From the IMG/VR virus record IMGVR_UViG_2711768018_000019: a stretch of DNA of 51,533 nt, one strand, 5' to 3'. Of this stretch, positions 4,478 through 9,059 are shown piece by piece; the first letter of the stretch is position 1; each line of letters starts with the position of its first letter. The position numbers and the translations under genes were made by a program. The notes under the pieces are model-generated. The model saw only the letters and a list, made by a program, of their open reading frames with translations, did not search any database and was not told the origin of the DNA. This stretch comes from a virus (Duplodnaviria; Heunggongvirae; Uroviricota; Caudoviricetes).

Positions 4478-5152
4478 TTAGGCCTTTATTATGTATCTTC
4501 TTGGTTTTCCTGAGAAAATCACTGTACCAATTATAGAGCAATTACCGTTAATCTTAATGTAAGGCTCAGGCCAGTTTGGGTTTAATGCTTTGAGATAACG
4601 CTGTGTTCCATCTTCTATCAACCGCTTGAAGGTGGTTTCGCCTGTATCGTGCATCAATGCAATAACGTCGTCACCGTGGCAGGCAGGGACTTCAGGATCA
4701 ACAAAAATCATGTCTCCCGGGCGGTACTCATCAATCATTGAATCACCAATCACCCGCAAGATATAAGTCATTTCGCCACAGGGTACAGGGCAGGGATAAG
4801 TTTCTGCTGTGCTCAAATCAACCTCAGAATAGCCAACTTCTTTCCATGCTCCGGCCTGTACCCATGATATGACAGGGACTAACGTTATTTGTTTGTTAGT
4901 GATTGAAACGTCAGGTTTTTTTGTGATGTTCGTTGTCTGGTGTTCTTGATCAAGCCATCCGACAGGCAGGTCGAAACATTTTTCGATGTGCCGTGCCATG
5001 CTGTCACCGATATTTTTAGTTGCACCATCTCCCATAAACCTGCTGGTCTGGGTTGGCTCGCGATCAATCATGGTGGCAAAGGAAGAATTCCCGCCAACAC
5101 CATCTCTCAGTTTTCTGGCGTTAGACCGCCGGATGTCATGGACTGTTTTCAT
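4478..5152 (-). CDS. cI: CI-type prophage repressor (HTH plus S24 LexA-like peptidase domain)
   Basis: 224 aa. N-terminal HTH region and a C-terminal S24 signature with Ser in GDSM (VIGDSMIDEYRPGDMIFVD) and a downstream Lys (TTFKRL). Divergent from the Cro-like gene across an operator region. Confidence 0.8.
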   Translation of the reverse strand: MKTVHDIRRSNARKLRDGVGGNSSFATMIDREPTQTSRFMGDGATKNIGDSMARHIEKCFDLPVGWLDQEHQTTNITKKPDVSITNKQITLVPVISWVQAGAWKEVGYSEVDLSTAETYPCPVPCGEMTYILRVIGDSMIDEYRPGDMIFVDPEVPACHGDDVIALMHDTGETTFKRLIEDGTQRYLKALNPNWPEPYIKINGNCSIIGTVIFSGKPRRYIIKA

Positions 5153-5474: not shown

Positions 5475-6038
5475 ATGAGGCTAACCGTGGGTAAGCATCA
5501 CTGGAAAGTAGAAAAACAGCCTGAGTGGTACGTGAAAGCTGTCAGAAAAACTATCGCGGCGTTGCCGGGGGGTTACGCTGAAGCTGCTGAGTGGCTGGAT
5601 GTAACAGAGAACGCTTTATTCAACCGCCTTCGTGCAGATGGCGATCAGATTTTCCCGCTGGGATGGGCAATGATTTTACAGCGCGCGGCTGGCACTCACT
5701 ACATTGCGGATGCTGTCGCACAGTCTGCTGGTGGGGTGTTTGTATCGCTTCCTGAAATTGAGGAAGTAGAGAACGCCGATATAAACCAGCGCCTGCTGGA
5801 AGTCATCGAACAGATCGGGAGTTACTCAAAGCAGATTCGTTCGGCAATCGAAGATGGGGTAGTGGAGCCACACGAGCAGACAGCAATTAATGATGAGTTG
5901 TATCTGTCAATTTCGAAGCTCCAGGAGCATGCAGCACTGGTCTACAAAATCTTTTGCGCTCCAGAAAAGAGTGACGCCCGCGAGTGTGCAGCTCCGGGCG
6001 TCGTGGCGTTTTGTGTCTGTGGAGAAACTAACGCATGA
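5475..6038 (+). CDS. YdaT/CII-like early regulatory protein
   Basis: 187-aa ORF immediately after the Cro-like gene, which is the conserved YdaS-YdaT arrangement. Assignment rests on position and general resemblance only. Confidence 0.4.
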   Translation: MRLTVGKHHWKVEKQPEWYVKAVRKTIAALPGGYAEAAEWLDVTENALFNRLRADGDQIFPLGWAMILQRAAGTHYIADAVAQSAGGVFVSLPEIEEVENADINQRLLEVIEQIGSYSKQIRSAIEDGVVEPHEQTAINDELYLSISKLQEHAALVYKIFCAPEKSDARECAAPGVVAFCVCGETNA

Positions 6039-6871
6039 ACAGTTTAACGGCAAATAACCGTTTGTCGCAACAGCTGGTGGTCAGCGTCGCTGAACACCTG
6101 TTGTTACGGCATGAATGCAGATTACCAAATCACCTGGCTGTAAGTAACCACAGAGAACTTTACCTGACTGTGGGGGGCGAGTTGTGCAGGAACTTAACCG
6201 CTGGTTTCGTGACGGAAGAGGACTTTATGTTCATGTTATTCGTTGGGAGCCAGAAACACAGCGCGTTATCTATCTTCGCAAAGACTACCCGCATGAGTGC
6301 TTTAGTCCTTTGTGGAAATTCAGGCGTGATTTTGTTGAGTGTGAAGGACCACCAGCACATTGATTCTGCCATTCCGGGACGTTACACTGTTCAGGCACCT
6401 TATAAAGCGGGTGCCGGGATTGGCGTCCTGGAATTGATCAAGGCGATATATGACGCGCCAGCGTCTTTTTTATCGTCCGCATTTGCTCACATCAAAGTTA
6501 TGGTGGGCTGGGCGGGGGCATCGAAAGATGCGCCGGTTTCCTTGATCACCGGTTACGCCAACCCCGTTCAGTTCACCACCAGCGAAATTGGCGTTTCCGG
6601 TGGTGGAAGTATTTCACCGATCAAGGAGGCTGCCATCATGGCTACTGTCCCAGCCCTCACTCGTCTGAATGATGAAGACTTACATAAACTCAGTTATGTA
6701 ACAACTGCACTACGTGCTCTGCGCAAGGTAACTCTTTCGGATCCGCAGGCACATCAGGTTCTGGTAGAAACCCTTCTTAACTTGCAAGCTGAACGTATTC
6801 GTCTGGCGGATAAGGCTAATTTTCATATTCACCGTCTCCTGAATATCAGCGGAGGGCATCGTCATGCTTAA
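6035..6871 (+). CDS. Hypothetical protein; ORF may be composite or contain a frameshift
   Basis: 278-aa open frame. A GTG-initiated alternative frame (about 6186-6365, with GGGGGG RBS) encodes a more protein-like peptide, and an internal ATG at 6638 has a strong AAGGAGG RBS. Confidence 0.3.
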   Translation: MNSLTANNRLSQQLVVSVAEHLLLRHECRLPNHLAVSNHRELYLTVGGELCRNLTAGFVTEEDFMFMLFVGSQKHSALSIFAKTTRMSALVLCGNSGVILLSVKDHQHIDSAIPGRYTVQAPYKAGAGIGVLELIKAIYDAPASFLSSAFAHIKVMVGWAGASKDAPVSLITGYANPVQFTTSEIGVSGGGSISPIKEAAIMATVPALTRLNDEDLHKLSYVTTALRALRKVTLSDPQAHQVLVETLLNLQAERIRLADKANFHIHRLLNISGGHRHA

Positions 6872-7100
6872 TCCGTTGATCCTCAATATTTGCCGTTTGC
6901 TTCAGCGTAAAAAAATATCAATTCCTACAGTTGGGCAGTGGTACACCACGCCTGCAGGGCATGTTCTACGTGTTAGCCTGGTTGACCGTGAATGCCAGAA
7001 GGTGATTTGTGAACCGCTGGGCCGTAATTACCGCGTCAGTATGCCGCTTATAGCCTTTCGCTCCGGAAAAAACATGAAGCATCTCGGAGGTGCAGCATGA
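6864..7100 (+). CDS. Small hypothetical protein (78 aa)
   Basis: ORF overlapping the stop of the preceding ORF and the start of the following gene, as in tightly packed phage operons. Confidence 0.3.
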   Translation: MLNPLILNICRLLQRKKISIPTVGQWYTTPAGHVLRVSLVDRECQKVICEPLGRNYRVSMPLIAFRSGKNMKHLGGAA

Positions 7101-7915
7101 GTATGGAGCTGATGGTTAAAGCGATGAAAATTCGAGTGGGTAATCCATTGCGAAAACTGGTTCTGATCAAGCTGGCTGATAATGCCAGCGATCAGGGTGA
7201 GTGCTGGCCCAGCTACCAGCATATTGCTGACCAGTGCGAAATTAGCAAACGTTCTGTGATGAATCATATTGCGGCCCTTTGTGAGTCCGGGCTGGTAAAA
7301 AAAGTCACCCGGAAAGGTGAAAAAGGTAACTCAAGTAATATCTATCTCCTTCATCTGGATGGTGCAGGAGATTCACTAGGGGGTAGTGCAAATAATTCAC
7401 TATCTGGTGCAGCAAATTCACCAGGTAGTGCAGGAGTTGCACCAGGGGGTAGTGCAGGAGATTCACCCAGAACCAGTCACTCTTTTGAACCAGTCAAAGA
7501 ACCAGTCAATGAACCAATAGCTGTTGGTGCATCAGTTGATGAGTCCGTGCGAGTTCGTTCAAACCGACCGGAATACTCTCCGGAGTTTGAGCAGGCATGG
7601 CTGGCATATCCCAAACGTGCTGGTGGCAATTCAAAATCTGCAGCCTTCAAAGCCTGGAAAGCCCGTTTGAATGAGGGAGTAAACCCCGAAACCATGCTGG
7701 AAGGTGTGAAACGCTACGCGGGATGGGTATCTGCGATGGGTAACAGCGGCACACAATTTGTGAAACAGGCTGTCACGTTCTTTGGTCCGGATCGTCATTT
7801 CGAAGAATTCTGGGAAGTTCCTGCGGTATCTGCAGCCAGACGCGAGGACCCGTACTTCAAAGCCAGTTACGACAACGTGGACTACAGCCAGATCCCGGCA
7901 GGATTCAGGGGGTGA
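7097..7915 (+). CDS. Replication initiation protein (HTH_36 / O-like replisome organiser)
   Basis: 272 aa with RBS ggagg. N-terminal winged-helix region, a low-complexity linker encoded by iteron-like DNA repeats, and a conserved C-terminal region. Sits in the lambda O position. Confidence 0.55.
   Translation: MSMELMVKAMKIRVGNPLRKLVLIKLADNASDQGECWPSYQHIADQCEISKRSVMNHIAALCESGLVKKVTRKGEKGNSSNIYLLHLDGAGDSLGGSANNSLSGAANSPGSAGVAPGGSAGDSPRTSHSFEPVKEPVNEPIAVGASVDESVRVRSNRPEYSPEFEQAWLAYPKRAGGNSKSAAFKAWKARLNEGVNPETMLEGVKRYAGWVSAMGNSGTQFVKQAVTFFGPDRHFEEFWEVPAVSAARREDPYFKASYDNVDYSQIPAGFRG
7360..7520. repeat. Iteron-like direct repeats inside the replication gene (candidate origin)
   Basis: Repeated units ggtgcaggagattcac (7361-7376 and 7452-7467), ggtagtgca(gga) several times, and three copies of gaaccagtca at 7470-7510. 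Confidence 0.45.
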
Positions 7916-8406: not shown

Positions 8407-9059
8407 TGAGTAATAAATATTGCCAGGCGCTGGTGGAGCTGCGGAACAAACCAGCCCATGAACTGAAGGAAGTGGGCGATCAGTGGCGCACGCCGGATAA
8501 CATTTTCTGGGGAATTAACACCCTGTTTGGCCCGTTTGTTCTGGATCTGTTCACTGATGGTGATAACGCCAAATGTGCCGCTTATTACACTGCGGAAGAC
8601 AACGCGCTGGCGCATGACTGGTCTGAACGTCTTGCGGAGCTTAAAGGTGCTGCCTTTGGTAATCCCCCGTACAGCCGCGCCAGTCAGCATGAAGGGCAAT
8701 ACATCACCGGCATGCGTTACATCATGAAACATGCCAGTGCCATGCGTGATAAGGGCGGACGCTATGTTTTCCTGATCAAAGCTGCCACCAGCGAAGTGTG
8801 GTGGCCGGAAGATGCAGATCATATTGCTTTTATTCGCGGGCGTATTGGTTTTGAACTGCCTGCCTGGTTTATCCCGAAGGACGAGAAGCAGGTGCCGACA
8901 GGCGCTTTCTTCGCTGGTGCTATTGCTGTTTTCGACAAGACCTGGAAGGGACCGGCAATCAGCTACATCGGGCGCGATGAACTTGAGGCATGTGGTGAGG
9001 CGTTTCTGGCGCAGGTTCGCCAGCAGGCGGAAAAACTGGTCAGGGAGATGGCGGCATGA
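8406..9059 (+). CDS. Phage Dam-family N6-adenine DNA methyltransferase
   Basis: 217 aa. Catalytic NPPY motif (AFGNPPYSR) and overall similarity to the phage N-6-adenine-methyltransferase family. Start overlaps the upstream stop (TAATG). Confidence 0.7.
   Translation: MSNKYCQALVELRNKPAHELKEVGDQWRTPDNIFWGINTLFGPFVLDLFTDGDNAKCAAYYTAEDNALAHDWSERLAELKGAAFGNPPYSRASQHEGQYITGMRYIMKHASAMRDKGGRYVFLIKAATSEVWWPEDADHIAFIRGRIGFELPAWFIPKDEKQVPTGAFFAGAIAVFDKTWKGPAISYIGRDELEACGEAFLAQVRQQAEKLVREMAA

Follow-up and report, generated by a model that had tools for sequence, protein, structure and literature searches.

A probable P4-like second immunity region in an SfV/e14-like lambdoid prophage

The window analysed here is a stretch of 51,533 nucleotides from a virus of the Caudoviricetes (IMG/VR record IMGVR_UViG_2711768018_000019). 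Between ymfL and a replication gene it contains a 278-aa ORF that starts with ATG and is uninterrupted along its full length. The ATG overlaps the ymfL stop codon in an ATGA at 6035-6038. The long ORF encloses a nested 77-aa ORF that shares its frame and its stop codon, and a DUF4222 gene is overprinted on its upstream part in another frame. Two small RNA genes and their target sites lie between these two genes, and a 78-aa ORF follows downstream (Table 1). A sequence-only reading of this DNA had seen the long ORF correctly. It had also quoted the exact peptide of the other-frame GTG ORF, but at 6186-6365, two bases off from its true position of 6184-6363. The GGGGGG ahead of this ORF and the AAGGAGG ahead of ATG 6638 are present as that reading described them.

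Table 1. Features of the region downstream of ymfL (positions in the window)
Feature	Position	Strand	Remarks
Long read-through ORF, 278 codons	6035..6871	+	open frame; same as SfV orf37; counterpart of P4 eta
Spacer between ymfL and DUF4222	6039..6183	+	long frame alone open; corresponds to YmfM-like leader part
DUF4222 protein gene, 59 aa, GTG start	6184..6363	+	overprinted on long frame; G-run SD 6172-6177
Candidate constitutive promoter TTGATT, 17 nt, TACACT	6360..6388	+	putative equivalent of P_isrK and P4 PLE
IsrK / P4 seqA-like small RNA	6395..6471	+	Rfam RF01394, 64.2 bits (gathering score 50), model positions 1-77 of 77
Target b1, ATTGGCGT	6419-6426	+	inside IsrK-like RNA
Target a1, GATCAAGG	6436-6443	+	inside IsrK-like RNA
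C4 (P1/P7) / CI (P4)-type antisense RNA	6496..6583	+	Rfam RF01695, 82.3 bits (gathering score 45), model positions 1-87 of 87
Conserved AUG at C4 5' end	6500..6502	+	long frame; positional match to first Gifsy-1 orf45 start
Recognition sequence a', CCTTGATC	6540-6547	+	in C4-like RNA
Recognition sequence b', ACGCCAAC	6555-6562	+	in C4-like RNA
Target b2, ATTGGCGT	6587-6594	+	downstream of C4-like RNA
Target a2, GATCAAGG	6619-6626	+	overlaps SD AAGGAGG 6623-6629
Nested 77-aa gene	6638..6871	+	position of P4 kil / P1 icd; long-ORF frame and stop
78-aa ORF, distant DUF4222-like paralogue	6864..7100	+	phrog_1153, E 4.8e-42

The other-frame ORF is a real gene, as its Pfam match and its pattern of substitution demonstrate. 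Its product matches PF13973 (DUF4222) with E 9.5e-14 and 51.1 bits against a cut-off of 27, it matches phrog_1343 with E 1e-36, and DUF4222 is annotated by PGAP in identical genomes. The pN/pS ratio is 0.11-0.14 in the DUF4222 frame and 1.6-3.5 in the long frame over the same nucleotides. Comparison of the window with K-12 gives ratios of 0.31 and 1.67 for the two frames, respectively. The DUF4222 frame is the sole frame over 6184-6363 that is under protein-level selection.

Over the RNA module pN/pS is about 1 in each of the three frames, and the variable sites are spread evenly over the codon positions. By these values and those of the DUF4222 overlap, a single plain gene of 278 aa does not describe the region, as had been suspected from the sequence, and there is no conserved protein of about 278 aa for which the long frame alone is under purifying selection. 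The long frame nevertheless stays open. Six substitutions that would make a stop in this frame are observed, none of which makes one in any real sequence, whereas the two control frames gain stops at 15 codon positions through 21 stop-making substitutions. Fisher's test, by our own estimate, gives p ~0.003, a value with few independent events behind it as the homologues are mutually related. When DUF4222 is resampled synonymously, a long frame with zero stops has P = 0.038, and the p-values of this resampling overall reach only 0.04-0.07. P4-like modules are 39 or 45 nt longer by net insertion, and the frame is preserved. In one natural variant, L123, the loss of 1 nt at the start of DUF4222 breaks the long ORF and leaves DUF4222 intact. 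Over DUF4222 and the RNAs, the long frame is thus one in which amino acids are unconstrained and stop codons are avoided.

Upstream of DUF4222, the spacer is unrelated in sequence to that of K-12 e14. Its 11 variable sites fall 2/5/4 over the codon positions and therefore show no third-position excess, the sites being too few to judge coding. A spacer variant of the L048 type, roughly 80% identical, has a 6-nt deletion and is still open. The offset from the long-ORF ATG to the DUF4222 start is 149, 143 or 179 nt, all three being 2 mod 3, and in three diverged versions of the locus ymfL, the long ORF and DUF4222 stand in an unchanged frame relation to one another. In homologous loci with at least six different upstream contexts, the ATG lies on or directly next to the stop codon of the ORF before it.

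The sequence-only reading overlooked the content of nt 6364-6637, two small-RNA genes with their target sites. Both RNAs match their Rfam models over the full length. The IsrK-like RNA ends in an intrinsic terminator identified by a terminator scan, with a hairpin at 6452-6465 and a U run at 6466-6471. Further Rfam matches (mir-3116, mir-875, SNORD91, mir-2032, STnc370 and STnc50) were far under their gathering scores and were treated as chance. A putative promoter, the -35 element of which overlaps the DUF4222 stop codon, is correctly spaced for an RNA that begins where the full-length match to the isrK model does, and is kept among module alleles; it is given as a candidate because it falls below the threshold of a generic promoter scan, where it is unlisted.

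The targets a1/a2 and b1/b2 are exact reverse complements of a' and b' of the C4-like RNA. Across homologues there are 13 variants of a' and 7 of b', most of which co-vary with their targets (a1/a2 matching 8/8, b1/b2 7/8). The C4 structure is retained in 43 distinct homologues, in which 99.1% of cells pair and 15 of the 27 pairs have compensatory double changes. This covariation was reached by none of 500 shuffles, and slid controls pair at 30-50%. The predicted minimum-energy fold of 6395-6650 (z -4.1) has a' and b' paired with a2 and b2 and the SD sequestered. At least three alleles of the module occur between flanks of 98-99% identity, and unrelated flanks can enclose identical modules. 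In P1 and P4 the C4/CI RNA is released from a longer transcript by RNase P, and the C4-like RNA of the window would also be released by processing of a longer transcript.

The long ORF matches Pfam PF10554 (Phage_ASH) with 67.8 bits against a cut-off of 26, over aa 117-210. These residues correspond to nt 6383-6664, and the match coincides with the RNA genes both in the window and in the old P4 "cI" ORF. The amino-acid constraint expected of a protein domain is not seen in Ash, with the pN/pS of about 1 in three frames given above. The Pfam "Ash" domain appears to be the translated RNA module.

The internal ATG 6638 with its perfect SD had been proposed to start a separate protein. It is a real and probably regulated start, and the ATG/SD block is conserved out to phage P4. 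Together with the Pfam match of DUF4222, this conservation exceeds chance. The 77-aa ORF has a pN/pS of 0.0-0.34, its variable sites fall 6/1/12 over the codon positions, and it is exchanged independently of the RNA module. Searches with the gene (6638-6868) returned no Pfam or NCBIfam match, Icd models included, and in PHROG only families that are of unknown function or named from the Ash part. A large protein search found close relatives only, 94-100% identical and with differing starts, plus one weak match of 67%. The AF2 model (pLDDT 83.7) has two helices, and the product is predicted to be a helical hairpin of a generic kind, with which Foldseek retrieved nothing at E < 0.1. BLASTP of Kil (65 aa) against the nested product aligned the RNA-encoded part and gave weak residual similarity only, and the ungapped nucleotide identity of the downstream part is about 0.3. 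Judged by these comparisons, the 77-aa product appears homologous to neither Kil nor Icd. The 78-aa ORF overlaps the 77-aa stop codon at one end and the start of the replication gene (7097-7915) at the other, in an ATGA at 7097, and the translationally coupled chain therefore appears to continue. The DUF4222 proteins also match phrog_1153, the family of the 78-aa ORF, with E 0.008 for the window and 7e-7 for K-12.

The arrangement is that of phage P4. P4 has both Rfam families of the window, in the window's order, at its CI and seqA sites, and antisense targets flank the RNA on both sides. The P4 ORF at 8767-8168 (eta; NC_001609) encloses that at 8365-8168 (kil), with one frame running across CI, and eta is ATGA-coupled to ORF88 as the window ORF is to ymfL. 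Both have the conserved SD-ATG junction ending in AGGAGGCTGCCATCATGGCTAC, and in both the replication genes lie downstream. The cassette type is already known, and the window holds a further member. Unlike P4, the window element is a lambdoid prophage that encodes a LexA-like CI repressor of its own (ymfK), its nested product is unrelated to Kil and a DUF4222 gene is overprinted on the upstream part of its long ORF. The window module lacks the additional 38-44-nt hairpin by which the terminator and CI are separated in P4-like copies. The function of eta and kil is summarized in a paper that cites Forti 1999, in which translation from upstream transcripts in P4 is reported to override the RNA immunity (PMC10111431).

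Phage SfV carries the same 837-nt ORF as orf37, "immunity region" (GenBank U82619.2), 99.7% identical in nucleotides over 6360-6680 and not set apart by its sequence. Its neighbours are those of the window, namely cI, cro, orf36 (the equivalent of ymfL), orf38 and the replication gene, and its annotation consists of a single CDS with no RNA genes and no DUF4222. In the immI region of P1/P7, which consists of the c4 RNA, the a1/b1 and a2/b2 sites, icd and ant1/ant2, a C4-family RNA (Rfam families RF01695 and RF03163) has two recognition sequences, whose pairing sites lie upstream of it and, for the first gene that follows, at the RBS. The sampled P1-like copies, here meaning distant C4 loci from IMG/VR, have no long ORF across the RNA, and the window gene has no Icd match. 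In K-12 e14, ymfM is an ATGA-coupled ORF that begins with "MNSLT" at the ymfL stop and overlaps DUF4222 in the same frame relation as in the window. It ends 20 nt before the DUF4222 end, its first ~50-60 codons are unrelated to the window, and e14 has neither the RNA module nor the genes for the 77-aa and 78-aa products. The K-12 ymfM gene (SfiC) overlaps a DUF4222 gene that has a TTG start and is better conserved than itself, and the e14 ymfM locus is present in 2004 genomes. Residues 48-98 of the window ORF match the YmfM family phrog_1170 (E 1.5e-8), a partial match that may be explained by the conservation of DUF4222, which this stretch overlaps.

The Gifsy-1 isrK-orf45 (STnc1160)-anrP locus of Salmonella also has an IsrK match with a terminator. 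Read-through, processing to an ~80-nt RNA and a translated uORF, orf45, that starts at +107 from the isrK TSS are described there (PMC4825925). The uORF start at about +107 corresponds to ATG 6500 of the window, which is fused in frame with the 77-aa ORF to give a 123-aa product; such 123-aa products are called elsewhere by gene callers (P0003, phrog_4908). In Gifsy-1 the uORF controls a coupled downstream gene, orf45 ending at the anrP start in an AUGA, whereas its window counterpart is fused in frame with what lies downstream. The cargo gene is an antirepressor in Gifsy-1 and the 77-aa protein in the window.

Taken together, 6035-6871 probably serves an SfV/e14-like lambdoid prophage as its second immunity region, built like that of P4. 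The anatomy of genes and RNAs, the covariation and the patterns of selection are observed, whereas the promoter, the RNA processing, the termination and the part played by translation are drawn from homologous systems. The candidate constitutive promoter within the long ORF (~6360-6388) would produce a short IsrK/seqA-like RNA ending at its own terminator. Read-through of this terminator would give a longer transcript from which the C4/CI-like antisense RNA is released. The a' and b' sequences of this RNA could then pair with a1 and b1 in the IsrK part and also with a2 and b2 upstream of ATG 6638. Pairing over the SD would mask it, and the 77-aa gene would therefore be silent on transcripts from the internal promoter; by polarity the coupled 78-aa ORF and the replication gene would be silent as well. 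Transcripts from the upstream early promoter, on the other hand, would carry ATG 6035 overlapping the ymfL stop. Ribosomes that end ymfL would re-initiate there and cross the DUF4222 region and the RNA module, and their transit may block both the RNA pairing and premature termination, as in P4 eta. Translation of the long frame would in this way suppress the immunity-dependent (Rho-dependent) termination, to which a frame that stays open with its amino acids unconstrained lends indirect support. The peptide encoded by nt 6035-6637 would be unselected, the openness of the frame alone being under selection. DUF4222, overprinted in a different frame, is a protein gene in its own right. Counted against the direction of repression proposed here is the Gifsy-1 case, where the effect of the short IsrK RNA on downstream translation is activation and not repression (PMC4825925).

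The same DNA has been read in other ways. A sequencing or assembly frameshift near 6170-6190 that fused or split genes was suggested by the sequence-only reading on the assumption that the assembly is a draft, with nothing more in its favour. Four complete E. coli chromosomes carry the 1251 bp of 5900-7150 with 100% identity, and phage SfV is 99.7% identical over 6360-6680, so there is no sequencing frameshift here. At least 80% of 5900-7150 is matched in 439 genomes, and the frame relation common to the three diverged versions also speaks against such an error, the probability of which is vanishingly small. A choice between one long ORF and several small genes, as that reading framed the problem, is a false one, and the evidence favours both together. 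It is very improbable that orf37 is a conventional multi-domain protein of 278 aa, with YmfM-like, Ash and C-terminal regulator parts, to which DUF4222 and the RNA matches are secondary. In favour of such a protein, the open ORF is an annotated CDS in SfV and a number of Stx phages, in some cases as a fusion with Rha or Ant domains, and PHROG families as well as the Phage_ASH match cover it. However, neither the pN/pS values nor the even spread of sites over codon positions in the Ash part fits a protein, the three parts recombine independently at the borders of the RNA module, and the Ash match falls on RNA genes. The epsilon protein for helper derepression in P4, called "Ash" in one review, belongs to a different family (PF25738).

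A reading in the manner of PGAP, which takes only DUF4222, the two RNAs and the 77-aa gene as real and the long frame, the "Ash family protein" included, as an accident without a translational role, inherited through the conserved RNA sequence, is unlikely but has more to recommend it. The long frame is without amino-acid selection over 6184-6637, PGAP leaves the 5' 290 nt of the long ORF unannotated, the frame is broken in L123 and absent from the distant P1-like loci, and "Ash" pseudogenes are reported to be frequent in P4-like satellites (PMC13586616). Against an accidental frame stand the six would-be stops that are never realized and the net indels of 39 or 45 nt that keep the frame. ATGA coupling to at least six unrelated upstream genes is also hard to obtain by chance, and P4 eta is reported to be translated and functional (PMC10111431). 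Translation of an open long frame across independently encoded small genes and RNAs is the preferred reading.

Public records file this DNA in three ways: as a 278-aa "immunity region" CDS in SfV, as the PGAP pair of an "Ash family protein" (6326-6871) and DUF4222, and as Rha or Ant fusions in Stx phages. None of the three shows the two RNA genes that define the cassette, and in comparative studies "Ash" then figures as a domain of unknown function in proteins or as one of the core proteins of P4. A tentative and rather doubtful extension is that ymfM-type ORFs, among them the K-12 e14 gene and the first ~110 codons of the window ORF, are "ribosome-transit" frames selected for openness and for coupling to ymfL and not for their peptide. 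If so, the filamentation attributed to ymfM could stem wholly or partly from the strongly conserved DUF4222 protein in the other frame. The published pBAD-ymfM insert includes 53 of the 59 DUF4222 codons, and the identity of the SfiC division inhibitor among the products of the ymfM locus becomes a testable doubt. The "Ash domain" of Rha/Ant/Bro-type phage regulators would likewise be a translated RNA-immunity cassette and not a protein domain. On the preferred reading of the region, common lambdoid prophages of E. coli and Shigella would carry a P4-style RNA immunity switch, in several heteroimmune alleles, ahead of their replication genes, which would bear on prophage induction and superinfection among SfV-like, e14-like and Stx phages.

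The region 6035-6871 is an eta-like read-through ORF with an overprinted DUF4222 gene, a putative internal promoter, IsrK/seqA-like and C4/CI-like RNAs with their target sites, and a nested gene in the position of kil. This composite anatomy is held to be practically certain, and an eta-like function of the long frame rather likely. Both this anatomy and the patterns of RNA covariation and selection were observed directly. As proposed in the sequence-only reading, the ORF listing contains a 278-aa ORF on the + strand with an ATG start, and the internal ATG at 6638 is preceded by an AAGGAGG Shine-Dalgarno (SD) sequence (6623-6629) eight bases upstream. The frameshift or assembly error suspected there did not hold up: four complete E. 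coli chromosomes match 5900-7150 at 100% identity. Matches covering at least 80% of this interval were found in 439 genomes. Shigella phage SfV is 99.7% identical over 6360-6680, and its GenBank record labels the same 837-nt ORF "orf37, immunity region". PGAP places two genes on the identical DNA, DUF4222 at 6184-6363 and "ash family protein" at 6326-6871, leaving 6039-6183 unannotated.

All of this lies in a lambdoid prophage of the e14/SfV type. Start codons overlap stop codons at 6035 (ATGA), 6864 (ATGCTTAA), 7097 (ATGA) and 7912 (GTGA). These overlaps fit a translationally coupled early operon, suggesting one long chain that would run from ymfL to the replication and PerC-like genes.

Features in and around the region (window coordinates)
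Feature	Position	Remarks
ymfK, LexA-type repressor	4478-5152	minus strand
ymfT, cro-like gene		between ymfK and ymfL in gene order
ymfL, CII-like gene	ends 6038	stop overlaps the ATG at 6035
isrK RNA, full-length	6395-6471	Rfam 64.2 bits, gathering 50
b1, ATTGGCGT	6419-6426	
a1, GATCAAGG	6436-6443	inside the IsrK part
Terminator hairpin and U run	6452-6471	
C4 antisense RNA, full-length	6496-6583	Rfam 82.3 bits, gathering 45
a' (C4 loop), CCTTGATC	6540-6547	reverse complement of a1 and a2
b', ACGCCAAC	6555-6562	complementary to b1 and b2
b2, ATTGGCGT	6587-6594	
a2, GATCAAGG	6619-6626	overlaps SD of ATG 6638
78-aa ORF	6864-7100	
HTH replication gene	7097-7915	

The small GTG-initiated ORF in the alternative frame is a real gene. 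Its peptide had been read exactly and the GGGGGG run is present (6172-6177), with the coordinates two bases off; the ORF spans 6184-6363 (59 aa). Pfam assigns it to DUF4222 (E 9.5e-14; 51 bits, cut-off 27), and it also hits phrog_1343. Selection was compared using homologues 76-89% identical to the window across this stretch. pN/pS was 0.11-0.14 in the DUF4222 frame, with variable sites distributed 14/13/35 over its codon positions, and 1.6-3.5 in the long frame. In the comparison with K-12 e14, whose copy has 59% nucleotide identity, they were 0.31 and 1.67, respectively. With pN/pS low in one frame and above 1 in the other, only DUF4222 is under protein-level selection over 6184-6363. One IMG/VR contig (L123) has a 1-nt deletion at the site matching 6183/6184, either a natural mutation or a sequencing error, that changes the GTG start to TTG and breaks the long ORF, leaving DUF4222 intact. 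The 78-aa "hypothetical protein" downstream looks like a distant DUF4222 paralogue, judging by its match to phrog_1153, a PHROG also matched by DUF4222 proteins (E 0.008 for the window, 7e-7 for K-12); a Pfam search with it gave no match.

The middle of the long ORF consists of two RNA genes, and its Pfam Phage_ASH match (aa 117-210, nt 6383-6664) falls exactly on both. An IMG/VR pattern scan with the C4 core yielded 120 loci. When 43 distinct C4 sequences are set against the Rfam structure, 99.1% of cells pair, with compensatory double changes in 15 of 27 pairs, a level reached by none of 500 shuffles; slid controls pair at 30-50%. The recognition sequences are diverse (13 different a' loops, 7 different b' sequences), and in most cases the exact reverse complement occurs on either side, upstream and downstream, at 8/8 bases for the a sites and 7/8 for the b sites. 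Examples of site/loop pairs are GATCAAGG/CCTTGATC, GTTATCGG/CCGATAAC and GCATACGG/CCGTATGC. The alleles of L006, L029 and L042 (a' = CCTTGAGC) depart from this otherwise strict three-way covariation: a2 fits the C4 loop at 8/8 bases, a1 at only 5 or fewer. In the predicted fold of the 256-nt transcript 6395-6650, a' and b' pair with a2 and b2 and the SD is hidden (z -4.1). In the module interior all three frames have a pN/pS near 1, and variable sites are spread evenly over long-frame codon positions (14/13/14, 7/8/6, 16/19/20, 17/17/18). The relatives thus offer evidence that the RNAs probably work as RNAs. The module behaves as a cassette bordered by the DUF4222 end and ATG 6638: at least three module alleles occur between flanks that share 98-99% identity with the window, and the window allele also occurs in unrelated flanks. 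Some viral contigs carry two C4-type modules in a same-strand tandem, each with its own a'/b' specificity, as in L023 (9728-9760 and 11040-11072) and L100 (about 650 nt apart), and the long-ORF translation of L036 includes a second C4-like stretch.

From 6638 on, the long frame has a pN/pS of 0-0.34 and variable sites of 6/1/12. The block AGGAGGCTGCCATCATGGCTAC is kept from these prophages to phage P4, where the ATG in it starts kil. This coding-type selection and conservation mark ATG 6638 as a real start. The 77-aa product has only close relatives in a large protein collection, with called lengths of 77, 113, 123 or 129 aa, and Pfam and NCBIfam searches gave no match. It is predicted to fold as a helical hairpin (pLDDT 83.7); a structural search with this model found no significant neighbour.

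Unusual as it looks, the arrangement is essentially known: an SfV-like prophage carries an immunity region of the P4 type. On the P4 genome (NC_001609), the old "cI gene product" ORF is a Phage_ASH match (E 4e-16); it overlaps the C4 hit of Rfam (8420-8507) and adjoins the isrK hit (8615-8692). A 199-codon P4 ORF, whose ATG overlaps the ORF88 stop (ATGA), crosses the RNA genes and has the frame and stop of the 65-codon kil. As summarised from Forti et al. [quoted passage not shown] Translation of full-length Eta, coupled to the upstream alpA homologue, takes place only from an upstream late promoter and prevents termination. In Gifsy-1, IsrK is a structural homologue of seqA, the downstream processed RNA is about 80 nt (STnc1160), and a translated uORF from +107 overlaps STnc1160 (PMC4825925); the equivalent AUG in the window is at 6500, in the long frame. 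Promoter activity, RNA processing and termination would, by homology, operate similarly here. Translation from early-promoter transcripts would then override the RNA immunity, and in the coupled early operon the RBS at 6623-6629 would be needed only by transcripts from the internal promoter.

The long frame was initially read as an accident. By synonymous resampling of DUF4222, the probability that the long frame has zero stops is P = 0.038. Four results point against an accident. Of 89 distinct C4 loci, about 63 keep the frame that the window defines open over more than 200 nt upstream and on to the next gene, with the other two frames closed; the loci lacking it are only distant, P1-like ones. 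Six of the substitutions seen among module variants would introduce a long-frame stop and none does in any real sequence, as against 21 such substitutions in the two control frames, with new stops at 15 codon positions (Fisher estimate p ~0.003). P4-like modules have an extra hairpin, a net insertion of 39 or 45 nt that keeps the frame and encodes an unconserved peptide. Finally, the long-ORF ATG overlaps or abuts the upstream stop codon in at least six different contexts (ymfL-type, a 182-codon ORF, the AlpA/ORF88 type of P4-like elements, and three others).

Pfam PF10554 "Phage_ASH" matches the obsolete P4 "cI protein" ORF over the CI RNA (L130, 8168-8584, minus), not epsilon, the helper-derepression protein, which belongs to PF25738. 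One review equates P4 epsilon with "Ash"; recent satellite papers do likewise, rely on it as a P4 core protein marker and report many "Ash pseudogenes". In Stx1/Stx2 phages, PhiR63_1 and Salmonella phage F1055 (L003, L005, L007, L008) the IsrK/C4 module is annotated in-frame with Rha/Ant antirepressor genes, giving products of 340-385 aa named "Rha", "Ant" or even "peptidase", in which the read-through frame makes up the first ~200 codons.

K-12 e14, unlike the window, is without the RNA module. Its ymfM (112 aa, beginning "MNSLT", ATGA-coupled to ymfL) overlaps a DUF4222 ORF (L129 2642-3000, corresponding to 6035-6363), the two frames being related as they are in the window, and aa 48-98 of the window's long ORF match the YmfM family phrog_1170. 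Current PGAP annotation of e14 has DUF4222 in place of ymfM. In five e14-type variants every substitution in the overlap is silent in the DUF4222 protein and changes the ymfM-frame peptide. Selection acts on DUF4222 rather than on the ymfM frame. In the parts consulted of the paper assigning SfiC, the division inhibitor, to ymfM, the ORF was expressed from pBAD24, and no control discriminating the two frames was found there. By its coordinates, 53 of the 59 DUF4222 codons lie within the insert as well, so either product may be the cause of the filamentation. The practical value of the finding is in annotation, together with a testable side question on SfiC.
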